From Chiloscyllium plagiosum (lineage: Eukaryota), in assembly GCF_004010195.1 (NCBI RefSeq), contig NC_057752.1, positions 7,466,014-7,517,664 of the forward strand: a stretch of DNA of 51,651 nucleotides. Direction: 5' to 3'. A model generated the notes under the pieces. It saw nothing but the letters and a program-made list of their open reading frames with translations. It did not search any database and was not told where the DNA came from. The position numbers were made by a program, and so were the translations under genes. Of the stretch, positions 2,765 through 51,515 are shown piece by piece (positions within the stretch are counted from its first letter, which is position 1; each line of letters starts with the position of its first letter).

Positions 2765-3984
2765 GTTATATCCCAGGCTGCTGGGAGGTGAGGGAGGAAA
2801 TGACCAAGGGCTCTGACCCAAATTTTTAATTCCTCCCTGACCATTGAAGAGGTGCCAGAGGACCGCTTTTCAAGAAAGGTGGTGGAAATAAACCAGGGAA
2901 TTACAGACAAGTGAGTCTCACATCAATGGTAGGGAAACTACTGGAGAGGATTCTGAAGGACAGATTTAATCTCCACTTGAAGAGGCAAAGTTTGACCAGG
3001 GTTAGTGAGCATGCCTTCAGCAGAGGGGAATCATGCCTAACAAATTTAATTGGATTTTTTGAGGAGGTGTGTAGCTGAGAGTAGGGCAGTTTATATGGGT
3101 TTCAGCAAAGCCTTTGACAAAGTCCCATGTGAGAGACTGATAAAGGAGGTCAAGCAAATGGAATTCAGTGTAACTTAGCAAGTTGGATCCAAAATTTGCT
3201 TAGTGGTAGGAGACAGAGTGTGGTGGTAGAAGGGTGCTTGTGTGACTAGAGGATGGTGTCCAGTGGTGTACCATATGGATCAGTTCTGGGTCCCTTATTG
3301 TTTGTAATTTATATCAATGATATAGATGAGAATGTGGGAGGGACAATAAGTAAATTTGTGGATGGTATGAAGATTGGCCAGAATGTTGACAGTGAGGAAA
3401 AAGGTATTAGGTCACATAAGGATATAGATGGATTGGCCGGATCAGTGGCAGATGGAATTTAACCCTTTGGATGAAGTAACAAGACAAGGGAATACTCAAT
3501 GCTTGGCCTGATACAAGGAAGCTAAGAGGAACAGAAGGATCTTGGGGTGCTTGTCCACAGATCTCTGAAGAGGGAAGCACAGGTTAATCGGGTAGAGTTA
3601 AGAAGGCATTCAGGATAAGTGTCTTTATCTGTTGTGGCATAGATTAAATAATAGCAGGAGGATTATGTTGGAGCTGTAAAAAACTTTGGTTAGGCCACAG
3701 CTCTCAAGTACTGTGTGCAGTTATGGTCACTTCGCTATAGAAAGAATGTGATTGCACTGGAGTGGATGCAGAGGAGATTCGCTAGCATGTTACCTGGGAT
3801 GGAGCATTTTAGTTATGAAGAGAAGCTGGTTAAGCACATGAATAAGAAATGTTTGGAGGGATATGGGTCAGGTTCAGGCAGGTGGGACTAATTTAGTTTG
3901 GTATTATGGTCGGCATGGACTGGTTGGACCAAAAGATCTGTTTCCATGCTGTATGACTCTATAACTCTATCTATGACTCTATGA
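2765..3984 (+). mobile_element. CR1 LINE fragment (RT region to 3' tail)
   Basis: PGNYRQVSLTS, FSKAFDKVP and [22 protein letters not shown] motifs; tail ctatgactctataactctatctatgactctatga. Confidence 0.9.
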
Positions 3985-6496
3985 GGTAGAGCAACAGCAA
4001 AGGAGAAAATAAAGTAACTCTGGATCCACTACCCACTGTATGGCCTGCTTCATTTGTCCAAAGATCTGGGAGTTCATAATTGTCCTGCTCAGTCTCATGA
4101 AGGTGTATGACAGAAACATGCAACCCTGAATAGATATCATCTTTGAATCAAGGGACACCTGCTACTGCCGAGAAGAGAATCATAATTTAATGTATAGCTT
4201 ATCTAAATGCTATTGTTAACTTATTCCTTAATGTCAGTGGTATTTAAAAGAATTGTACATGTTAAGTGTAACTGAGACAGATTGCTTTTTCGCAACCTCT
4301 CTGTTTCAGTACCTGCAGCTTGTGAATCTCAATAATTCCTTGTGGTGATAAATATGTAGAATGAGGTTGTTACCATCACAGCATGCTTCAGACTTCTCAG
4401 GTGTTTTGCAATGTCAGATCTGCTATTATAAATACTTTTGTGGTGCTCCCAGTACTGAGTATAGGACATGCTGAAAGCACCACAGGGATTGGATTATCAG
4501 CAGCTGGTTTAAAGGGCCTATGACTGCTTTGATTGTGCCTATCCTTTGGAGATCATGCAGCAGGAAGGCTGGGAACAAGAGAGAAACGGCCTACTATGAG
4601 GAGAGAGAGCTACTTGTTGTAAAGCTGAAGATTTAGCTCTAGGCATCTCTTGAAGCATCTTTTTGAAATGGTGTGGAGTGACTGAAAAGATTTTCAGTTG
4701 CTCCAGAATCATTATGGATCTTTTTCTATGTTAAATTAATCCTTGGATGTCAATGAACTTTCTGCACAGTTGATCCACAAGCTCATACTGGTCCAGGTAC
4801 CTGTGGCCTCATTTTGGTCTGTGCTATGTGCACTAGATGCTACATTGGTGACTGTGCGAGGAGTTCTTCCACTTCAGTGTAATCTGTGTCTAACATCTGC
4901 ATCAAGGAAGGCTCTCCCTTAAAATAGAAGGATACCATACCACTTCACATCTATCCAAGCTACCCTGTCCCAGGAAACAGCTGCCACATAACGCAGCTGT
5001 TGTGCCCATACATAATAAGCTGGTGACAACTGCAACATTTCCAAAGTCCAACATCTTTTGTGCATAAAGCAGACATCAGTTAGACCAGACCAACAACTTT
5101 CATTGCATTTCTTTTAGTTGTTAATCTTGTATTGATTTATCCATCTAAAGAAATAATCTACTGGCCCCTATCTATTCCTTTTATTACCTCTTTCAAATAC
5201 CCTCTCAATTTTCTCACTTTGAGAGAATGAAGCCCTATTTTCTGCTTTAATAATCAAAAATGCGCCTTACTTAATTTCTGTTTGAAATATGCCTCATTAT
5301 AGGTCCTTGCTGTCAGTTACAAAAGTTCTGAAAAACTGCCGGCAACCAAATTTTAAGTGGGTAATTCTCATTATCCAGGGGTTTACTGTGCAACCTGTTT
5401 CCTTTTCAGTTATTGCTCCTGATTCCACAATGAGAAATTTCTCACTTATCTTAAATGCCTCTTCGTCTTTCCAAACAACCTGCTTTCACCAAATGCAAAT
5501 TCCATGGTGTATTCCTCATTCAGGCTGGGGTGTAAGTACTATTGAAGTCCTATTGATTCAAAGTGATCTTGATTTGCATTAATTTATAAGGCCCGCCAAC
5601 CTCAGATGGGAGTCACAGCAATGTAACAGCAGTGAGCAGTTAAAATGATGACCAGAAAACATTTAGTGGTAGTGGGCAAGGTAAAAGGCTCCATTTTGAA
5701 GGACCCATTCAACATTTTGCTGCTGTGTAGAGTAGGTTAAGTTCAGTTCCTTAGTGTTTCTTCCACTAGCATCTTTTAAAGTGAACGACTTGGACTTTAA
5801 TAAAAACTCGCCCCTTAAGAAGACATTAAAGATAACAATTAAATGATCAAAGCTTTAATACTCGAACCAGACAGTTAGTGTCAAGCTGTTTACATTACAG
5901 TCATATGCTATGGTGGATGGATAAACACACTGCATTTGAACTTTTTGTATATTTGCACAACACAAATGAAACAATTTTGCATACCACAAAATAGTATCCA
6001 AATGAGATACTGAAACTTCATCATGTCCAGTAATTAAGTTTAATTCTGAATAAAAAACGCTTCTGAGTTTTCTCCTTTGATGTTCCTTTTGGTGGTTGCA
6101 ATCTACTTGCTGGCATTAATGTTGCTAACAAGTACCAATTGGATTTATTATGAGAACTACCTTTATCAAAAATGTCTTTTTATTTCTGATGGCGAGTAAC
6201 AATGTACTATTCAAGTAGTTAGCACAGATAATTGCATGAGGGATAATAGAGAAATGCTTCCTTCATATGGTGTATGGCCCTAGTAGAGGAAAATGGGATT
6301 GTATAAGTAGTGGCAGATTTTTGGCAGTACAGACTTAATGGGCTCAGTTAGGGGAGGTGACGACCTAGTGTTATTATTGCTAGACTATTAATCCAAGAAG
6401 GAGAAAGTGAGGTCTGCAGATGCTGGAGATCAGAGCTGGAAATGTGTTGCTGGAAAAGCGCAGCAGGTCAGGCAGCATCCAGGGAACAGGAGAATC

Positions 6497-6524
6497 GACG
6501 TTTCAGGCATAAGCCCTTCTTCAG
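6497..6524 (-). ncRNA. Minimal hammerhead ribozyme motif (left-arm copy)
   Basis: Minus strand reads CTGAAGA-A-GGGC-TTAT-GCCT-GAAAC-GTC. Confidence 0.65.
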
Positions 6525-6939
6525 GAATGAGGAAAGTTTGTCCAGCAGGCTAAGATAAAAGGTAGGGAGGAGGGACTTGGGGGAGGGGCGTCGGAAATGT
6601 GATAGGTGGAAAGAGGTCAAGGTGAGGGTGATAGGTCAGACGGGAGTGGGGGCGGAGAGGTCGGGAAGAAGATTGCAGGTTAGGAAGGCGGTGCTGAATT
6701 CGATGGATTTGACTGAGACAAGGTGGGGGGAGGGGAAATACCTTGTCTCAGTCAAATCCATCGAACTCAGCACCGCCTTCCTAACCTGCAATCTTCTTCC
6801 TGACCTCTCCGCCCCCACCCCAGTCTGACCTATCACCCTCACCTTGACCTCTTTCCACCTATCACATTTCCGACGCCCCTCCCCCAAGTCCCTCCTCCCT
6901 ACCTTTTATCTTAGCCTGCTGGACAAACTTTCCTCATTC

Positions 6940-6967
6940 CTGAAGAAGGGCTTATGCCTGAAACGTC
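6940..6967 (+). ncRNA. Minimal hammerhead ribozyme motif (right-arm copy)
   Basis: CTGAAGA core, extra A, stem II GGGC/GCCT, then GAAAC-GTC with palindromic ACGT in place of stem III; predicted cut after 6967. Confidence 0.65.
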
Positions 6968-7659
6968 GATTCTCCTGTTCCCTGGATGCTGCCTGACCTG
7001 CTGCGCTTTTCCAGCAACACATTTCCAGCTATTAATCCAAGAACTCAGGTAACGTTCTGGGGACCTGGATTCAAATCCTGCCACGGCAGATAATGGAGTT
7101 TGAATTCAATTTTTTAAAAAATCTGGATTGTCAGGAAAAACTGATCTGGTTCACTCGTGTCTTTCAGTGGAATGAGATCTGTCATCCTCATGAGCCGACA
7201 TGTGACTCCAGACCCATAGCAATGCAGTTGACTCTCAACTGCTCTCTGAAATGGCCGAGCAAACGAACTAATTGCATCAATCATTATGAAGTCTCAAAAG
7301 AAATGATATCGACCTTGGCACCAGAAAAGACAATGGCAAAAACAGCCCTGTTGACCTTGCAAAGTCCTCCTTACTAATACTTCCAGGATAGTGCCAAAAT
7401 TGGGAAAGCTGTCTCACAGACTAGTCAAGCAATAGCCTAACAGTCATATCTTACAGACAATATCCCAGACACCACCGTCACCCTCCCTAGATACAGACTG
7501 ACCCACCGGTAGGACAGATCCTGCAGAGGTAGTGGCTCTGGATTACATTGGGAGGGAGTTGCCCTGGACATCCTCAACATTGACTGTTGACCCCATGAAG
7601 GCTCATGGCTTCAGGTTAAACATGGGCAAGGAATTCTCCTGCTGATTATCACATACTGT

Positions 7660-7975
7660 GGCGGCATGGTGGCTCAGTGGTTAGCACTGCTGCCTCACAG
7701 TGCCAGGGACCCGGGTACAATTCCCGCCTCGGGCAACTGTCTGTGTCGAGTTTGCACATTCTCCCCGTGTCTGCATGGGTTTCCTCCGGGTGCTCTGGTT
7801 TCCTCCCACAGTCCAAAGATGTGCAGTTTAGGTGAGTTGACCATGCTAAATTGCCCATAGTGTTAGGTGCATTAGTCAGAGGTAAATATAAGGGGGTTGG
7901 TTTCTCTTCGGAGGGTTGGTGTGGACTTGTTGGGCCGAAGGGCCTGTTTCCACACTGTAGGTAATCTAAAATATC
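7660..7975 (+). mobile_element. HE1-like tRNA-derived V-SINE nested in the LINE APE region
   Basis: A box tggctcagtgg, B box ggtacaattcc, V-domain tttgcacattctccccgtgtctgc...cctcccacagtccaaagatgtg, CR1-like tail; TSD tactgt at 7654-7659 and 7976-7981. Confidence 0.92.
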
Positions 7976-8335
7976 TACTGTCCTTCCTCAGCTGATGAAT
8001 TGGTACTCCTCCATGTGGAACAGCACTTTGAGGAAGCACTGAAGGTGGTAAGGGCACAAAATATACTCTGGGTGGGGGATCTCAATGTTCAGCACCAAGG
8101 GTGGCTCAGCAGCAGCATTACTGATTGAGCTGGTCAGGTCATAAAGGACATAGCTGCTAGACTGGGTCTGCAGCAGGTGGTGAGGGAACCAACAAGAGGG
8201 GAAAAAGTACTTGACCTCATCCTTACCAAATCTGCCAGCTACAGATGCATCTATCCATGTCAGTATTGGTAAGAGTGACCACCGCACAATCCTTGTGGAG
8301 ACAAAGTCCCGCCTTCACATTGAGAATATCGTGAT

Positions 8336-9838
8336 GTGTGGCACTATCACTGTGCTAAGTGGGACAGCCTTCAAACAGATCTAGCAACTCAAGACTGGGC
8401 ATCCATGAGGCACTGTGGGCCACCAGCAGCAGCAGAATTTTTCTCCAGCATAATCTGGAACCTCATGGCCTGGTATATCCTCCACTCAAATATTACCATC
8501 AAGCCAGGGGATCAATTGTGGTTCAATGGAGACTGCAGGAGGGCATGGCAGGAGCATCACCCAGCATATCTAAAGATGAGGTGTCAACCTGGTCAAGCCA
8601 CAAAACAGGACTACTTGCAAGCCAAACAGTGCAAGCAGCAAGTGATAGACAGAGCTAAGCGATCCCACAACCAATGGATCAGATCTACGCCCTGCAGTCC
8701 TGCCACATCCAGTCATGAATGGTTGTGGACAATTAAACAACTCACTGGAGGAAGAGGAGGCTCCACAAATATCTCCATCCTCAATGATGGCAGAGCCCAG
8801 CACATCAAAGCAAAAGATAAGACTGAAGCATTCTCAGCAATCCTCAGTCAGAAATGCCGAGTGGATGATCCATCTCATCCTTCACAAGTGGTCCCCTGCA
8901 TTACAGATACCAGTCTTCAGCCAATTCAATTCACTTCACATGATATCAAGAAATGGTGGGAGACATTGCACACTGCAAAGGCTATGGGCCCTGACAATAT
9001 TCCAGCAATAGTACTGAAGACTTGTGCTCCAGACCTCGCTCCCCTAGCCAAGTTGTTCCAGTACAGTTACAACACTGGCATCTACCCGACAATGTGGAAA
9101 ATTCCCCAGGTATGTCTTGTAAGTAAAAAGCAGGACAAATCCAACCCAACCAATTACCGCCTCATCAGTCTACTGTCAATCATCAGTAAAATGATGGAAA
9201 GTGTCATCAACAGTGCTAGCAAGCAGCACCTGCTCAGTGACGCCCAGTTTGTGTTCTGCCAGGGCCACGCAGCTCCTGACCTCATTACAACCTTGGTTCA
9301 AACATGGATAAAAGAGCTGAATTCCAGAAGGGAGGTGAGAGTGACAGCCCTCGAAACCGAGGTAACATTTGGCCAAGTGCAGTATCAAGGAGTCCTACTA
9401 AACTGGAATCAATGGGTATCGGGGCAAACTCACTGCTCATTAGAGTCATACCCGGCACATAGGAAGATGGCTGTGGATGTTGGAGGTCAGTCATCTCAGC
9501 TCCAGGACATCTCTGTAGGAGTTCCTCAGGGTAGTTTCCTTGATCCAACCATCTTCAGCTTCTTCATTGATGACCTTCCCTCCATCATAAGGTCAGAAGT
9601 GGGGATGTGTGCCAATGATTGCACAATGTTCAGCACCATTTGCCACTTCTCAGATACTGAAGCAGTCCATGTCCAAATGCTACAAGATCTGGACAATATC
9701 CAGGCTTGGGCTGACAAGAGGCAAGTAACATTGACACCACACAAATGTCAGACTATGACCATCACCAATAAGATACAGTCTAACCACGTGTCCCTTGACA
9801 TTCAATGGTGTTACCATCACAGAATCCCCCTCTATCAA
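8336..9838 (+). pseudogene. LINE ORF2 reverse-transcriptase segment, probably inactive
   Basis: GPDNIP, NYRLISLLSIISK and GVPQGSFL motifs; the catalytic (Y/F)ADD reads CAND. The last ~30 codons of the 530-aa ORF come from the Rex1 insert. Confidence 0.85.
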
Positions 9839-11655
9839 TTTTACTTTCTTTATTTATTTTCGCATATACCGAAGTACAGTGAAAAGTACAGACGGATCAT
9901 AGTAAGCAAGATGCACATCATAGGGTGAAAAAACACTTCAACAGAGGTAAACAGGTTACAGTGCTCAAGGCATTACTTGAAGTTAGAGAGTCCATTCATC
10001 AGTCTAATAGTGGCCGGGAAGAAGCTGTTCCTGAACCATCTGGCGAGTGTGTTCAGGCTGCTGTATCTTCTGCCTAATGGAAGAGTTTGAAAGAGAGCAT
10101 TACTGGGGTGGGATGGGTCTTTGATGATGTTGGCAGCCTTTTCACGGCAACGAGTAATGGGGTCTGGGCTGTGCACCCAACCTTCTGTAGTTTCTTCCAG
10201 TCCTGGGCAGAGCAGTTACCATACCAGGTCGTTATGCACCGGGACAGTATGCTTTCATCTGTAAAGGTTGGTGAGGGACCTTGTGGACATGCCAAATTTC
10301 CTGAGCCACCTGAGGAAGAAGAGGCGTTGTTGTATCTTCTGGACCATCACATCTATGTGGGAAGTCCAGGACAGGTTTTCGTTTATCGTCACTCCAAGGA
10401 ACTTGGCACTCTCCCCCCTCTCGGCCTCAGTTCCGTTGATGTAGATGGGGGTGTGTTCTCCTCCTTTCTCTCTGAAGTCAATGATCAGTTCTTTAGTTTT
10501 GCCGATATCGAGAGACAAGTTGCTTTCATTGCACGATGTCACCAAACCCTCTATCTCTTTTCTGACTTGTTGTTGTTAGATATCCATTCTACCATGCTGG
10601 TGTCATCAGCAAACTTGTAGATGGTGTTCATTCAGACTTTGGCAACACAGTCGTGGGTGTACAGGGAGTACAGTAGGAGGGCTGAGAATGCATCCTTGGG
10701 GAGGCTCCAGTGTTGAGTGTTATAGTGGAGGAGGTGCAGTTTTCTATCTTCACTGATTGCAGACTATGGGTCAGGAAGCTGAGAATCCAGTTACAGGGGG
10801 CAGAGCCGAGACCTAGGTCTCCTAGTTTTGAGATCAGTCTGGATGGGATCATGTTAAAGGCGGAGCTGTAGTCAATGAGCAGGAGTCTGATGTAGGTGGC
10901 CTTGTTGTCTAGGTGTCCCAGGGATGAGTGCAGGGCTAGGGAAATGGCATCTGCTGTGGACCTGTTATGTTAATCCGCAAATTGTAGGGGATCAAAGCAG
11001 GCTGGGAAACTAGAGCTGATGTGGGTTGTGACCAGGCTCTTGAAGCACTTCATGATTATGGTGGCAAAGCCATTGGGCAGTAGTCATGAAGGCACTTTGC
11101 ATGTGCTTTCTTAGCTCCTGGGATGATGATGATGGTCTTTGGTGGGCGCTTTGGCTTGTAGAGGGAGAGGTTGAAGATGTCAGTGACTACCTCCACCAGT
11201 TGGTCCGTACAGGATCTAAGTGCACATCCAGGGACTCCATCTGGGCCAGTCACTTTCCTTGAGTTGACTCCCAGGAAGACCGATCTGATGTCTGCAGCAG
11301 TGACTGTGGGCAAGAGGTATGTCCGGGGCTGTCGGGGAAGATAACACCACACCACTGGCATTCTGCTTGAACCAAGCATAGAAAGCATCAGGGGGCGATG
11401 TGTCTTTGTCCGCTATCTTAACCTGCTTCATTTTGTATCACGTTATCTTGTTTAGGCTTTGCCACAGGCAGCGAGTATCTGTCTGGTTGATTTGAGTCTC
11501 TGACTTGATCCAGTACTGCCTCTTAGCATTCCTGATGGCTTTGCAGAGGTCACATCTGGATCTCCTGTATAGGTCTGGATCGTCTGACTTGAATGTTACA
11601 CGTCTGGTCTTCAATAGGGAGTGGATTTTTTGGTTCATCGAAGATTTCCAGGATA
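9839..11655 (-). mobile_element. 5'-truncated Rex1/Babar-clade LINE nested in the LINE
   Basis: Minus-strand peptides AIRNAKRQY, GPDGVPGCALRSC, KTKELIIDFR, RLFFLRWLRKFG and ESILSRCITTWYGNCS; TSD tatcaa at 9833-9838 and 11656-11661. Confidence 0.88.
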
Positions 11656-12979
11656 TATCAACATCCTGGGCGAAACTCAACTGGACTTGAAACATAAACA
11701 CAGTGACTACAAGAGCAGATCAGAAGCTAGGAATACTGAGGCAAGTAACTCATCTTCGGATTCCCCAAAGCCAAGTTAGGAGTGGAATGGAATACTCCCC
11801 ACCTGCCTGGATGAGTGCAGCTCCAGAAACACTCAAGAAGCTTGATACTACCCAGGATAAAGCAGCCTGCACCATATCCACAAACATCCATTTCCTCCAC
11901 CACAAACACTCAGTAGCAGCGTATATACTATTTACAAGATGCACTGCAGAAATTCACTCAAGATCCTCAGACAGCACCTTCCAAACCCAGGACCACTTCC
12001 ATCTAGAAGGACGAGTGCAGCAGATACAAGGGAACACCATCACCTTCAATTCCCCTCCAAGCCACTCACCCTCCTGACTTGGAAATATATTGCGGTTCCT
12101 TCACAGTTGCTGGATTATAATCCTGGAATTCTCTCCCGAACGTCATTGTGGATCAACCAACAGCAGGCAGACTGCAACTGTTCAAGAAGACAGCTCAGCA
12201 CCACCCCCTCAAGGACAAATAGGGATGTGCAATAAATACTGGCGATGCCCACTTCCCTTGAATGAACTTATGTACTATACCATATGATTTTATGATTCTA
12301 TGATCCTTTTGAATTATGAATGTTATACAGCAGGGGCGAAGCCTTCGACAGATCATTGGAAGGCTGCATCTGGCAGTGGAGAGATGACTGTCAGATTTTG
12401 GGCCCAACAATCATGAGAGACAATACCATTCGCAAGAGGGCTAAAACTACATTTGCAAGAGGGCGCAGAAAAGAAGAACAAGAGGATTATGAGGTCTTAG
12501 TCTACAATTCACTGCAGCCATGAATGTCTTCACTTCTGGATCTCCAGGAATCTGCTGTGGATTTTATCTGTGTTTTCTAAGCTGCAGACTATTACACCAC
12601 ACAGGTTTCTGATACTTTCTTTACTGAACAGTAAATTAATTTCATAATCGACCAGACAAGGCAAAGACAAGAGGGCATTGGGTTTCATCAGCATTCCTGA
12701 GCTCTCCAAGCTGCAGAACATTATTTATTGCATCCATGTGGCTGCCAAGACACCCAATAACTGCCTATTCAGACTTATTAAGAGGAAGGGCTTCTACTCC
12801 CTCAATGTTCAACTAGCCTGCAACCATAACAAGAGCTTCCTCAAAGTGTGCAATTGCTTTTCTGGCAGCTGCCATGACTCTTTCATTCTTCAGCAATCCA
12901 GACTATCATAGATCTTCATTCCAACTCCCAAGGTGTGTAGATGGATATTAGTGAACAAGGGATATTTCTTGAAGAGGTG

Positions 12980-13182
12980 AAAGTGAGGTCTGCAGATGCT
13001 GGAGATCAGAGCTGGAAATGTGTTGCTGGAAAAGCGCAGCAGGTCAGGCAGCATCCAGGGAACAGGAGAATCGACGTTTCGGGCATAAGCCCTTCCTGAA
13101 GAAGGGCTTATGCCCGAAACGTCGATTCTCCTGTTCCCTGGATGCTGCCTGACCTGCTGCGCTTTTCCAGCAACACATTTCC
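12980..13182. mobile_element. 203-bp fold-back Penelope-like insertion (family A)
   Basis: Perfect 82-bp arms 13014-13095 and 13101-13182, 5-nt spacer; 16-bp TSD atttcttgaagaggtg at 12964-12979 and 13183-13198. Confidence 0.92.
13096..13123 (+). ncRNA. Minimal hammerhead ribozyme motif
   Basis: CTGAAGA-A-GGGC-TTAT-GCCC-GAAAC-GTC with a fully paired stem II; stem I is only about 2 bp. Confidence 0.7.
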
Positions 13183-15194
13183 ATTTCTTGAAGAGGTGCC
13201 TATTCAGCTACCTATAGGAGTCTTGGACAAAGGCACATGGGCAACACAGGAATGCCACCTGCTCAATAGGACTGCCATTGAACAAGCTTGTTAATATACA
13301 GTTCTAATGCCTGAATTAGTCAGGTGGTGTCCTCCAATATCTTCCTGCAAGGGCTTTGGTCATATCTGCCATGCTCTCCATAACATGGTTATCCGGAAAG
13401 CTGTGGATTTTTAAGACAAAGAGGCCCTGAAAGAATGCAGCTCTCTTGGGGAGGAGCAGAAGATGAGAGGAAGAGGAATTAAAGGTGGAGAGAGATGACA
13501 ATGAACCTGCTGCATCATGAGATGGTCACCTCCAACTACCCTTCAGGAAGCGGATGCAACTCTCCCCCTCACAGCCTCCAGCATGAGATTCATGTCAGCA
13601 TCAATGAAATGAAGGATAGCCCTGTCTCTGTGTCAAGCTTTTGCCTCCCATGACATTTCACTTCCTTCTACTGGGGAAGGATTTGGCATAAACTGCAGCT
13701 TTTTTTCTTTGGTCTACCAGCATCCTCAGTGATGGCTGCCATGGGATGTCTAAATGAGTTCAGTGTTTCAGCTGATCCACCTCTGTTCCCATTTCTAATA
13801 GCTCTAAGTGGCCAAGAAATTCCCCTCCACACCAATTAAGGACCTCCCCATGTGAAAACCTGAGCCTTATCAATTTCCTTACTACCACAACCAGGTGTAT
13901 GACCTGAAAATAAGCCTGGCTGCTGTTTCTTTTCTCCAAGTTAAAAATTCACCCCTTCAATTTTCCATTTGTTTATCAAATATCTGCACCTGCCAAGACT
14001 TTTATGGATGCGGGTTAGGGTTGCTTATGAGCTTTGCAGAAGATCGAATCTGTGTTTAAAGGATTGTACTTATTTTATGTTGTAATTGTGATGGTATGAC
14101 ATCTTAAACTGTTAACATAGACATTGTTCTGATTTAAGCTTTATCTAGATGTCTGAGAAAAGCAAGCCTTTACATATTCAAAAATTTCAGCTCTCTCAAA
14201 TACCCTTGGCCCCGAGGGTTTTGGATAATTGAAGGTCCACTGTACTGCAGAGCCAGTTTAATTGTAAGACACATTGTAATCACAGTTCTGACACTATTGG
14301 GAAACAAACCCATGTCTCAGTGAGTTTGACAGCCTGTAGGCTGATCAGCTGACTGCCTGTCAAGCACCTGTCTAAGCCCTTTAGATAAATCACAGATGGA
14401 AATGCCACACGTCGACTCTGCACACTCGGATTGCTGAATATTCAGCTGCATATCATCTGAGATTTAACCCTCCAAGGACCCACAATAACATTTCTCAACC
14501 CATCACAGGGTGTAGTTAGATGAGCAATTTTCAGCTCATCAGAGAATATTGATGAATGTCCAATATCTTCTATTGCACACATTGCTTTGCAAAATGAATG
14601 AAAATCAATTCTGTATAAGAACCTTTCTAGAAGCCTCTTGCATTCTTAACATTTAAACTGACTCCACTTACCTTCTGAGTGCATTAACTGTTTAATCCAT
14701 AAGGACATTTAAAAATATGAAACTCTTAGTCACTTGCAATACATCCCAACAACCAAGTCAATTTTCAATCACTCCCAGCGTATCAATGATTCAATGAACT
14801 AAGTCCATCCCCATTCCCTCACAATCCAGTAGACCAAATCTATACCTATTCTGTCAAATTGTAGAATTTTCCACTGGACCAAATCCATCTTCATTACCTC
14901 AATTCATTGATTATTCTAATGCATCATATTCATCTTCATTCAATCTCAATTCAAGAATTTAAGTGGTTTTTGGATTTTGCTATTGGAGCCTGAAATGATG
15001 CGATAAAACTCTTCTTTTTCTGTTGGCTGTAATGATTCTGGTTGAAATTGTTTTTGGTAGATCTGAACACATTTCTGAACAGCAATGAGCCCAATCCATA
15101 AGACTACTCTTATTTTCTGGTGTAAATTGTAACAAAATTGACCATTTTATCTTGAGACCCACTGGGCTGCAAGGGTGGGGATAGATGTGGGTTA

Positions 15195-29549: not shown

Positions 29550-29870
29550 ATTTATTTCATATTCATTCATGGCATATAAGTGTTGCTGGCTAGGCCAGCA
29601 TTTCATGCCCAGCACTAGATGCCCTTTAGAAGGTGGTGCTGAACTTCTTCCTTGAATTGCTGGATCCACCCATAATACTATGAGGGGCAAAATTTCAGAA
29701 GTTTGACTCCGTGACAGGAACAGCCATATCTTTCCACGTCAGGATGGTGAGTGGCTTGGAGGGGAACTTGTAAGTGGGGGTGCTCCCATGTCCTTCAAGA
29801 TGGTAATGTTCATCATAAAAGCTGCTGTCGAAGGCACCTTGGTAAATTTCTGCAATTCATCTTGTGTGGA
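29550..29870 (-). mobile_element. 3' fragment of the tRNA-headed LINE family
   Basis: Reverse-complement homologue of 11930-12268. Confidence 0.75.
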
Positions 29871-36819: not shown

Positions 36820-36892
36820 TAAAAAGCAGTATCGACAGTGTCGTGCTGGAAAATCACAGCAGGTCAGGCAGCATCCAAGGAACAGGAGAATC
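36820..36892. mobile_element. Penelope-like family A pLTR fragment
   Basis: gctggaaaatcacagcaggtcaggcagcatccaaggaacaggagaatc matches 6449-6496. Confidence 0.75.
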
Positions 36893-37205: not shown

Positions 37206-37850
37206 TGTTCATCTGGAAGGATGTCCTTTGCTTCTCTCAGAAATGTTGTGTGTCCAGGCAAATAAATAAGCATCAATGGACATGGTGTACAAATGTAGTT
37301 ACATTCTCAAATTATCTAAAACCACACTGCATGCTCTCTACTCATATGTGTGTTTTCAGCACTCTGTGTTATGCTCTGAAATAATTTTCCTATAGTGAAA
37401 GTTTGACTAACTAATCTGTAATTACGAGGTTTGTGCATTTTAAAAATTATTTCAGGAGATGGATCAGCATTTATAGCCCATGACTAGATGCCCTTGAGAA
37501 GGTGGTAGTGCGCTGCATTCTTAAACCGCTACAGTCTATTTTATTTGAATAGTCCCACAATGCTACTAGGGAGGGTGATCTAGGATTTTGACCCAATGAC
37601 ACTGAAGGAATGATGATATTGTTCCAAGTCAGGATGGTGAGTGGCTTGGAGGACATCTTGCAGGTGATGGTGTTCCCATATATCAGCTGCCCTTATGTGT
37701 GTTTGGAAGGTTCTGTCCACAGAAGCCCAGTGAATTTCTTCAGTGCATTTTGTGGCTGGTACACGTTGCTGTTACTGACTATTTCTGGTCAAGCGGTTGA
37801 ATGTTTGTAGATGTGATGCCAATCAAGCAGGTTGCTTTGTTCTGGATGGT

Positions 37851-39253
37851 CATAGAATCATAGAGATGGAAACAGACCCTTCGGTCCAACCCGTCCATGC
37901 CGACCAGATATCCCAACCCAATCTAGTCCCACCTGCCAGCACCCGGCCCATATCCCTCCAAACCCTTCCTATTCATATACCCATCCCTCTTAAATGTTGC
38001 AATTGTACCAGCCTCCACCACTTCCTCTGGCAGCTCATTCCATACACGTACCACCCTCTGCGTGAAAAAGTGGCCCCGTAGGTCTCTTTTATATCTTTCC
38101 CCTCTCACCCTAAACCTGTGCCCTCTAGTTCTGGACTCCAGGGAAAAGACTTTGCCTATTTACCCTATCTATGCTCCTCATAATTTTGCAAACATCTATA
38201 AGGTCACCCCTCAGTCTCCAACGCTCCAGGGAAAACAGCCGCAGCCTGTTCAGCCTCTCACTACAGCACAAATCCTCCAACCATGGCAACATCCTTGTAA
38301 ATCTTTTCTGAACCCTTTCAAGTTTCACAACATCTTTCCGATAGGAAGGAGACCAGAATTGACCAATAAAGGAAAGCATACCAAACGCCTTCTTCACTAT
38401 CCTATCGACCTGCGACTCCACTTTCAAGGTGCTATGATCCTGCACTCCAAGGTCTCTTTGTTCAGCAACACTTTCTAGGACCTTACCATTAAGTGTATAA
38501 GCCCTGCTAAGATTTGCTTTCCCAAAATGCAGCACCTCACATTTATCTGAATTAAACTCCATCTGCCACTTCTCAGCCTATTGGCCCATCTGGTCAAGAT
38601 CCTGTTGTAATTTGAGGTAACCCTCTTCGCTGTCCACTACACCTCCAATTTTGGTGTCATCTGCAAACTTACTAACTGTACCTTTTATGCTCGCTTCCAA
38701 ATCATTTATGTAAATGACAAAAAGTAGAGGGCCCAGCACCGATCCTTGTGGCACTCCACTGGTACTGCTCTGCCCTCATCCAATCTTCTTTGTTACTTCT
38801 TCAAAAAACTCAATCAAGTTTGTGAGACATGATTTCCCACGCACAAAGCCATGTTGACTATCCCTAATCAGTCCTTGCCTTTCCAAATACATGTACATCC
38901 TATCCCTCAGGATTCCCTCCAACAACTTGCCCACCACCGAGGTCAGGCTCACCGGTCTGTAGTTCCCTGACTTGTCTTTACCGCCCTTCTTAAACAGTGG
39001 CACCATGTTTGCCAACCTCTAGTGTTCCGACACCTCACCTGTGACTATCGATGATACAAATATCTCAGCAAGAGGCCCAGCAATCACTTCTCCAGCTTCC
39101 CACAGAGTTCTTGGGTACACATGATCAGGTCCTGGGGATCTATCCACCTTTACCCATTTCAAAACATCCAGAACTTCCTCCTCTGTAATCTGGACATCTT
39201 GCAAGATGTCACCATCTATTTCCCTACAGTCTGTATCTTCCATATCCTTTGCC
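37851..39253 (-). mobile_element. CR1 (HER1-like) nested in LINE copy 2
   Basis: SPGPDHVYPR, NYRPVSLTSVVGK, SQHGFVRGKSCLTNL and MEFNSDKCEVLHFG. Confidence 0.93.
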
Positions 39254-40107
39254 AAGCTTTCTGAGTATTATTGGAGTTGCAGTCATGTGATGAGTATTCC
39301 ATCACACTCCTGACTTGTGCCTTGTAGATGGTGGACAGGCTTTGGGGAGTCAAACAATGTGTCATTCCTTGCTATATTCCAGCCTCTGACCTGCTCCTGT
39401 AGCCACAGTATATGACTTGTCCAGTTCAGTTTCTGGTCAATGATAAGTTCCAAGATGTTGATATTGAGGGATTCAGGTTCAGTGATCGTAATGATGCTTA
39501 CATCTTCTGTTGTTGGAGGTGGTCATTGCTTGGCACTTGTGTGGTGCAAATGTTACTTGCCTCTTGTCAACCCAAATCTGAGTGTTGTCTAGGTCTTGCT
39601 ATATTTGTATATAGACTGCCTCAGTATCTAAGGATTTATTAATGGTGCTGAACATTTTGCAATCAAAAACAAACATCCCGGCTTCTGGCCTTATGATGGA
39701 GGGAATGTTATTGATAATGCACATGAGTCGATGCTATACCTATGCTACCTTCAATGTTTCCTCCAAGGTAGAGTTCAACATGGAGGATACTGATTTATCA
39801 GCTGATGGGGGAGCACTTGATAATCCACAGAAGGTTTCCTTTTGATTTGAAAACATGAGACTTCATGAGATCTGGAGTTAATGTTGAGGGCTCCGAGAGT
39901 AACTCCCTCTGAACTGTATACCACTGTGCTGCAACCTCTGCTGGGCCTGTCCTGCTGGTGGAACAAGACATACCCAAGGATGATGATGGTGCCTGGGACA
40001 TTGTCTATAAGGTATGATTCTGTGAGCATGGCTATTTCAGGCTGTTGCTTCACTAGTCTGTGAGACAGCTCTCCCAATTTTGGCACTAGCTCCCAGATGT
40101 TCGTAAG

Positions 40108-40565
40108 GAATGAGGAAGTCGGTTAGCTCACTGAGCTGCTGGGTTATCATGCAGATGTTTCATTACCATGCTGAGTAACATCATCAATGTGACTTCCGTG
40201 AAGCGCTGTTGATGTCCTGCTTGGTTTTTATGTGGTCTGGTCTGTTGGGGTGAGTGTCTTCTCTGCAACAGTTGTACACTGGGTCTATCTCTATGTGTTT
40301 GTTGATGGTCTTTTTGGTTGGAAACCAGGCTTCCAAGGACTGTTCTTACAGGAAGCAAACTAGCCACCTGATTTCACAATCACCAACTGGCAACTAAATG
40401 ACATGATCCACTGTCCCTCATCTCTGTACACACAGACCAAGAGGGCCATCAATTCAACTATGACAAAGTAACCACTCTAGGACAGGCCAACCAGAGACAT
40501 GCCAGAGAGTCCTTAGAAACCTGGTTTTCAACCAAAAAGACCATCACCAAAAACATAGAGATAGA
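40108..40565. mobile_element. Penelope-like family C fragment (inverted pLTR plus GIY-YIG C-terminal piece)
   Basis: 40150-40190 resembles 23008-23040; 40345-40560 is homologous to 24005-24220. Confidence 0.75.
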
Positions 40566-49279: not shown

Positions 49280-49587
49280 AATCTTCCACTGAATGTGCAC
49301 AACGCTGGTAAGGTCAGCATTTGTTGCCCATTCTTAAGCTCTTGAACTAAGTGTCTTTTTAAGCCATTGTAGACAGCAGTTGAGTCAACCACATTACTAT
49401 GCATCTGGAGTCACATGCAGACTGGATTGGTTATATATATTTATATTCCAGGTTTATTAAACAAATTTTAATAAATTACTAAATTGTGCTAGCTATAATG
49501 GTGAAATTAGAACCCTTGACCACAAAACACAACACTTAGCCCCGCATTAGGAACTTAGTGATATTATCACTATGCCACCATCTCCCC
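49280..49587 (-). mobile_element. tRNA-derived SINE sharing head, body and tail with the tRNA-headed LINE
   Basis: Minus strand has A box tggcatagtga, B-box-like ggttctaatttc, a body matching 7199-7256, and tail atgggcaacaaatgctgacc. Confidence 0.72.
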
Positions 49588-50852: not shown

Positions 50853-51362
50853 CTCTATATCTACCTCCTTCTTGGAAACACAATGTTTTGGCCTCAACCA
50901 GTTCCTGTGATAGTGAATTCCACAGGTTCACCATTCTTTGGGTGAAGGCATTTCTCCTCATCTCAGTCCTTTATGGTTTGCCCCTTATCCTTAAACTCTA
51001 ACACCTTATTCTAGACTCCTCCACCATCAGGAACATCTTTCTTGCATCTAACCTGTCTAGCCCTGTGAGAATTTTATAGGTTTCTATGAGATACCCCTCG
51101 TTCATCTAAAGTCCAGTGAACACAATCCTAACCAATTCAATCTCACCTCATACATCAGTCCTGTATCCCAACAATCAATTTAGTAAATCTTTGCTGGACT
51201 CCCTCTATAGCAAGAACATTCTTCCTCAGATAAGGAGACTAAAGCTGTACACAATATTCCAGGTGTGGCCTTACCCATGCCCTGTATAATTGCAAGACAT
51301 TCTTCTTCCTGTTCTCGAATCCTCTCACTATGAAGGCCAACATACTGTTCACTTTCTTTACT
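50853..51362 (-). mobile_element. CR1 fragment, opposite orientation
   Basis: gaattccacaggttcaccattctttgggtgaag and acaatattccaggtgtggcctta (RPHLEYCV on the minus strand). Confidence 0.85.
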
Positions 51363-51515
51363 GTACTAGAGAAGGTGCAAAACTTGACCTACTCTTTGCC
51401 CTGTATAATTGCAAGACATTCTTCTTCCTGTTCTCGAATCCTCTCACTATGAAGGCCAACATACTGTTCACTTTCTTTACTGTACTAGAGAAGGTGCAAA
51501 ACTTGACCTACTCTT
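51278..51515 (+). repeat. Perfect 119-bp tandem duplication
   Basis: 51278-51396 is identical to 51397-51515. Confidence 0.95.

Follow-up and report, generated by a model that had tools for sequence, protein, structure and literature searches.

A tRNA-like head at the 5' end of the elasmobranch CR1-Zenon retrotransposon, a candidate RNA polymerase III promoter on a coding element

Can a coding retrotransposon carry, as its own 5' end, the tRNA-like head otherwise usual on short interspersed nuclear elements (SINEs)? [quoted passage not shown] The question is raised by a 51,651-nt stretch of Chiloscyllium plagiosum contig NC_057752.1 (the window, within which all element coordinates are counted), where positions 6351-12268 hold a single retroelement, split by three inserts, whose tRNA-like head stands ahead of an endonuclease and reverse transcriptase frame. 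A preliminary description of the window had proposed an autonomous-type retrotransposon with a SINE-type head. That proposal is supported here: neither a predominance of other 5' ends nor a head bounded as a separate insertion was found, and the element, a member of the CR1-Zenon group, is probably transcribed by Pol III.

DNA queries against the 3.56-Gb host genome gave about 9,000-10,000 first-look candidates, and a family consensus was built from 173 alignments at 140 loci. This consensus is 3,281 nt long and comprises a ~330-nt leader, a single frame encoding an apurinic/apyrimidinic endonuclease (APE) and a reverse transcriptase (RT) that ends at position 3228, a short AATAAA-bearing 3' end and an A-rich tail. 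The open reading frame (ORF) of the consensus, which was to be checked for intactness, is a single APE-RT frame with one residual frameshift in a G-run. Individual copies are 10-13% diverged from the consensus, most complete ones have short A-rich tails, and no intact ORF occurs among 150 RT matches listed from the host genome. Shark proteins in the NCBI database match the element at ~70%, and a search for longer homologues gave one protein. In a FastTree phylogeny of 91 RTs, among which there was no named Zenon, the family lies beside unnamed invertebrate and metagenome RTs and apart from the host CR1 (support 0.97). Stuart et al. 2026 (PMC13343379) list elasmobranch CR1-Zenon consensuses in their Supplementary Table 2, and these were compared by eye over the first 400 nt of each. 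Over that length the published consensuses from five species (white shark, whale shark, catshark, dogfish and stingray) begin with the same head as the host consensus, which places CarCar_, RhiTyp_, ScyCan_ and HypSab_Zenon-1 and SquAca_Zenon-1 to -3 in the same family, while those of hagfish and coelacanth start differently. The five published -1 consensuses are 3.24-3.31 kb long, lack ORF1 and have an A-tail, as does the host consensus, from which no sequence difference was noted in the compared part; the passages of that paper on elasmobranch Zenon likewise describe it as ORF1-less and poly-A-tailed, and its supplement records copies with an intact ORF from stingray and whale shark. Since the published shark and ray consensuses open with the same sequence, and the single APE and RT ORF without ORF1 and the poly-A tail agree, we assign the window family to elasmobranch CR1-Zenon. 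The initial caution that the family might already be catalogued was well placed, and the head is a family-wide and ancient feature.

Surveys of 5' ends were anchored on coding sequence in order to escape bias. Of 151 RT matches 62 were taken; these start at consensus positions 1-12 in 11 cases, 13-120 in 8 and 121-430 in 4, the other 39 being truncated further in. Head sequence is present in 19 of the 23 copies that extend upstream of the endonuclease. Of the APE-anchored copies, 29 in number, 11 extend as far as the head, and in 7 the start lies at positions 1-4. The count of 5' ends suggested in the preliminary description therefore favours the head, as none of the anchored copies (29 APE-anchored, 62 RT-anchored) has an alternative untranslated region (UTR) or an ORF1. 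Thirty-seven upstream flanks share no alternative UTR; their 11 pairwise matches are other repeats, mostly of the family of insert 1 described below, and none extends the element. No separate tail, the sign by which an independent head would have been recognised, lies between head and ORF, and head and ORF join colinearly in dozens of independent copies whose flanks are unrelated, as well as in five other species. The tRNA-like head is an integral 5' end of the Zenon element. The target-site duplications (TSDs) spanning head to tail that had also been looked for were found neither in the window copy nor in the family; TSD scores at 61 element ends are no different from those of mismatched pairs, making TSDs undetectable family-wide. 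Three of the 29 APE-anchored copies begin at 187-190, a cluster that did not recur in the 62 RT-anchored copies and was dropped.

The anatomy of the window copy is as first described. Each insert is bounded by a TSD, of 15 bp (6385/7029), 6 bp (7654/7976) and 6 bp (9833/11656); the latter two are short, yet both inserts break sequence that is continuous in the consensus. Excision leaves a copy of 3,136 nt, where ~3.1 kb had been estimated, with 89.4% identity to the consensus. The A box noted at 6361 occupies 6361-6371 and has three mismatches, whereas the consensus A box is a perfect match; the B box noted at 7068 lies at 7067/7068-7078. The first endonuclease motif, at ~7364, is ~370 nt into the spliced copy, as reported (428 nt into the consensus), leaving no space for ORF1 between head and APE. 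Pfam matched the RT (PF00078) within the window, at 8324-9925; its match to the endonuclease (PF14529) is in a sister copy. Because it bears 13 frame-shifting indels, the window copy is dead; it also lacks the A-rich tail seen in sister copies. Rfam matched only the insert-1 hairpin in the window, always under gathering scores. The parts of the copy are as follows.

6351-6399, plus strand: 5' part of the head, with element +1 at 6351, the A box at 6361-6371 and a D-arm/anticodon-arm-like region
6400-7043, strand not applicable: insert 1, 291-nt inverted arms, 99% complementary, with the second copy of the 15-bp TSD; we take it to be a Penelope-like end
7044-7088, plus strand: 3' part of the head, with a variable-arm-like stem and the B box at 7067-7078
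7089-7248, plus strand: conserved non-coding body (consensus 95-292) common to LINE and SINE, the SINE breakpoint mapping to ~7248
7246-7286, plus strand: hairpin of the consensus with a 7-nt anticodon-like loop, then an in-frame Ala codon; decayed in this copy, its function putative
7283-7659, plus strand: N-terminus of ORF2 (basic segment) and start of APE, broken; the consensus has no in-frame ATG here
7660-7981, plus strand: insert 2, a ~320-nt SINE with four further copies in the window, presumably of HE1/V-SINE type
7982-9838, plus strand: remaining APE, linker and reverse transcriptase (PF00078)
9839-11661, minus strand: insert 3, an antisense fragment of another LINE family with 7,123 first-look candidates in the genome, presumably Rex1/Babar-like
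11662-12224, plus strand: C-terminal portion of ORF2, up to its stop in the consensus (~12222)
12213-12268, plus strand: 3' end that recurs in the SINE (final ~63 nt of the consensus); AATAAA at 12231

In the consensus the head has a canonical A box (11-21) and B box (73-83) at tRNA-like spacing near +1. ARAGORN makes no call with default settings; at an 85-89% threshold it draws an 88-nt long-arm cloverleaf from the consensus head, and does likewise for 1 of 300 shuffles. Out of 46 host tRNA-like genes, an incomplete set, Leu(AAG) matches the head best (z=8.0), and the parent tRNA was likely of the Leu or Ser class. Between species, as judged by eye, the A box varies at degenerate positions alone, four of the five published consensuses have an intact B box, and the variable arm keeps its stem while differing in sequence. 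The head thus has both the box spacing and the tRNA homology of a tRNA-derived SINE head; the whole element, at 3.28 kb and with an APE-RT frame, is neither short nor non-coding, and only its 351-nt derivative, described below, answers to the definition of a SINE. An HDV-like ribozyme at the 5' end, of the R2, RTE or Ingi type, was rejected, as a loose descriptor applied without a positive control gave zero matches in the first 420 nt; Rfam likewise found no ribozyme, nor any tRNA or internal ribosome entry site (IRES), in 18 copies. One ARAGORN call upstream of the ORF at locus L299 was judged to be chance, relaxed ARAGORN yielding 17 calls across 80 loci. The B-box region can also pair with post-head sequence (consensus 73-113, window ~7067-7110) in a long hairpin alternative to the tRNA fold.

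A Pol III transcript of this length would have to be free of T-run terminators, and a depletion of sense-strand runs of four or more T had been predicted on these grounds. It was found: the consensus contains no TTTT, and four TTT where 23 are expected from composition and 14.3 from dinucleotides (P=0.0014). In its coding part there are three TTT runs against 11.7 in synonymous-codon permutations, 0 of 5000 of which were equally low. TTT ranks first in depletion among the 64 trinucleotides in the consensus, as against 63rd in the host CR1 and 37th in the insert-3 LINE. Phe is encoded by TTC 15-17 times and by TTT once or twice; Asn codons are split 20:20. The host CR1 has 16 TTTT, the insert-3 LINE two in 1.8 kb, and all 80 outside (metagenome) relatives at least two; none of these 80 has an upstream B-box match, a weak test where contigs are short. 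The window copy itself carries two sense-strand T4+ runs. One of them, the T6 at 7110-7115 that had been feared to halt Pol III, is an A-run in the consensus, with T4+ there in 7 of 41 copies, and so represents a minority state; the same A-to-T decay is visible in the family tails.

The start of translation is also unusual. Met is absent from the first 280 residues of the ORF2 consensus (P about 0.003), its first in-frame ATG corresponding to window position 8405, whereas an upstream in-frame Met is present in 44 of 46 relatives. Two Zenon subfamilies, represented by 19 and 32 copies, are set apart by frame-preserving indels of 3 and 9 nt in the basic N-terminal segment, for which reason this segment is likely coding and initiation likely non-AUG. 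An in-frame ATG at consensus 266 was an artefact of blending the two subfamilies: the linker offset is 79 or 82 in 14 of 21 copies, and each subfamily's own consensus has the frame closed. By eye, the shared frame opens at an Ala codon near 327 in the host and in four of the five published consensuses, with dogfish one base off. Just 5' of this codon lies a hairpin with a 7-nt loop resembling an anticodon loop, the centre of which is complementary to the Ala codon; the predicted fold and the in-frame codon are present in both subfamilies. The arrangement recalls pseudoknot I of the dicistrovirus intergenic IRES, which the relevant part of PMC3517527 describes as a tRNA-like anticodon:codon mimic that permits non-AUG initiation. 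In Zenon, however, the pairing is of 3-5 bp, is invariant and without covariation, and may have arisen by chance, so that with no Rfam IRES match in those 18 copies and no nested pseudoknots recognised further upstream the likeness is a lead only; that an anticodon-mimic hairpin acts at the ORF start is speculative and distinctly doubtful. A 35-codon AUG-started frame, out of frame with ORF2, overlaps its start (consensus 348-455, window ~7300-7390), and its AUG is also in the compared part of the published -1 consensuses; it could be a regulatory upstream ORF or a means of entry by frameshift.

The head is not confined to the LINE. A head 18-mer has 1,585 exact matches in the host genome, and most of the first 30 belong to a ~351-nt SINE composed of consensus nt 1-292 and the last 63 nt; only one runs on into APE. 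This count and the lack of a head-to-tail TSD are what one would expect had a SINE inserted beside a truncated LINE at this locus, but the chance of that is practically nil, as the copy survey refutes it: the junction recurs colinearly among unrelated flanks and in the five other species, and TSDs cannot be detected anywhere in the family. The SINE breakpoint coincides with the last in-frame stop, and the hairpin is lost in the SINE. Other head-plus-tail derivatives have breakpoints at 337/3170, 348/3161, 408/3179, 491/2960 and 818/3069. Three 451-nt derivatives sharing the first of these (L167, L183, L189) have near-identical flanks and were therefore duplicated with surrounding DNA rather than separately retrotransposed. 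Because promoter and 3' recognition end would lie on one element, internal deletions of the LINE likely give ready-made SINEs, the ~351-nt one among them. Promoter capture and SINE parentage, the two readings offered at the outset, both fit because a matching SINE exists. The order may instead be reversed, the SINE coming first and template switching or recombination then linking its first 292 nt to a Zenon ORF; this would make the ~351-nt SINE a sister or donor and not a deletion product, under either polymerase. The head's ultimate source must indeed be a tRNA or a SINE, the SINE junction 18-mer outnumbers its LINE-type counterpart about fourfold (4,305 against 1,057 exact matches), and by eye the SINE retains states found in Zenon of white shark, catshark and dogfish, not those of the host LINE. 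The several derivatives with other breakpoints show that deletion from the LINE recurs, and the heads of SINE and LINE are about equally diverged from their own consensuses (12.5% and 13.0%); we hold the reversed order possible, though we lean against it.

The reading we favour, with some confidence, is that Zenon is an autonomous LINE transcribed by Pol III from which SINEs arise by internal deletion. In such a cycle TFIIIC would bind the internal A and B boxes of the head, Pol III would start at +1 and traverse 3.3 kb thanks to the T-run-purged sense strand, and termination would probably occur at a genomic T-run past the A-tail. Translation of the uncapped RNA would begin at a non-AUG codon where the conserved frame starts, probably aided by the structured body, and the APE-RT protein would reverse-transcribe the RNA that encodes it in a target-primed manner, ORF1p playing no part. 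In human cells retrotransposition of Pol III transcripts does not require ORF1p, according to the part of Kroutter 2009 (PMC2666806) that deals with them. Since all Zenons lack ORF1, ORF1-independence may have eased the polymerase switch rather than the switch having caused the loss. Several observations weigh against Pol III. As far as the published descriptions go, every Zenon has lost ORF1, whether or not it bears a tRNA head, and so the loss is not evidence of Pol III; default ARAGORN and Rfam miss the head in single copies. Tested against dinucleotide or codon nulls, the lack of TTTT does not by itself reach significance (P 0.12-0.13), and TT is scarce in the insert-3 LINE too, which has no T5-of-6 window, so that the case rests on TTT, for which Zenon and this LINE differ at P=0.03. 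A translated 3.3-kb Pol III RNA has, to our knowledge, little precedent. RNA run X11 gave 1,533 reads on Zenon, concentrated on the head and 3' part and on both strands with a ~3:1 bias, but no sharp start site; its poly-A loose ends at an internal A-run suggest internal priming. Run X12 gave no reads on Zenon. The head might then be a captured SINE 5' end carried as a passenger or RNA module, with Pol II transcription from a cryptic body promoter or by host-gene read-through and T-poverty reflecting composition or RNA stability. LINEs are normally Pol II-transcribed (relevant passages of PMC10886601), and an AATAAA 45 nt from the consensus end, together with the A-tail, also fits Pol II polyadenylation; reads on both strands and the low TT of another host LINE likewise speak for this alternative. 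Against this, by eye the A and B boxes persist in sharks and rays alike although the spacer has changed, many copies begin exactly at +1, and TTT-specific depletion and AUG loss co-occur with the head and are absent from relatives, which makes Pol II transcription, to us, rather unlikely. The favoured Pol III reading can be extended to a coding Pol III retrotransposon that predates the shark-ray split, is purged of terminators, is translated independently of cap and AUG by an anticodon mimic, and founds SINEs through one deletion in which the translation module is lost; as a whole this is improbable, the IRES-mimic detail being its weak link.

Among the closest known systems is lepidopteran Zenon with its derivative Persaeus (PMC6740152), which in the sections concerned is likewise ORF1-less and repeatedly yields short 5'-plus-3' deletion derivatives; Persaeus, however, is described there as lacking tRNA homology or a Pol III promoter, whereas the shark derivative is a tRNA-headed SINE. 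Bov-tA, AfroSINE and CoeSINE4 (PMC5786205) combine a tRNA head with LINE 5' and 3' parts, like the Zenon partner SINE, but there the head was added to a deleted non-coding LINE, while in sharks the coding LINE is itself headed; the LINE parts in those cases are from RTE, Ingi, Vingi or R2, here from Zenon. RTE-1_DAn and related elements, LINEs said in the same source to contain tRNA-like sequence, are a possible precedent, although of another clade, and the passage in question gives neither position nor role of the tRNA-like part; RTE-1_DAn is named by no other paper in the literature searched. Cassandra, Helenus and Ajax (TRIMp3; PMC10886601) are non-SINE retroelements with Pol III promoters derived from small RNAs; as presented there they are long terminal repeat elements, non-autonomous and non-coding, unlike Zenon. 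The main text and preprint of PMC13343379 contain no occurrence of tRNA or polymerase III, and its Zenon passages make no remark on the head, on the depletion of T-runs, on the missing AUG or on the partner SINE. PMC11481361 and PMC5499810, in the parts concerned, are about other SINEs. The literature search, with Repbase, Dfam and subscription journals outside it, gave no account of a Pol III-headed Zenon or of its partner SINE, and although the family is catalogued this aspect is apparently undescribed. If Zenon is what we propose, a long-lived vertebrate LINE on a tRNA promoter would break the polymerase divide between LINEs and SINEs, and would offer a natural instance of a translated 3.3-kb Pol III RNA and a one-step route of SINE birth. 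It would also make testable the proposal, set out in the relevant part of PMC2666806, that the polymerase sets the need for ORF1p.

Further repeats were seen in the window. A second Zenon copy on the minus strand (37465-40109) is more decayed and internally deleted, with a CR1 insertion at ~38317-39204, and Zenon fragments lie at 29561-29865 and 49345-49420. The inverted-arm family of insert 1 occurs at 6400-7043, 12975-13188 and 36844-36892 as near-perfect hairpins with arms of 291, 88 and ~49 nt, and is also found inserted in many Zenon copies. At the window end, 51278-51515 is a perfect tandem duplication of two 119-nt copies.

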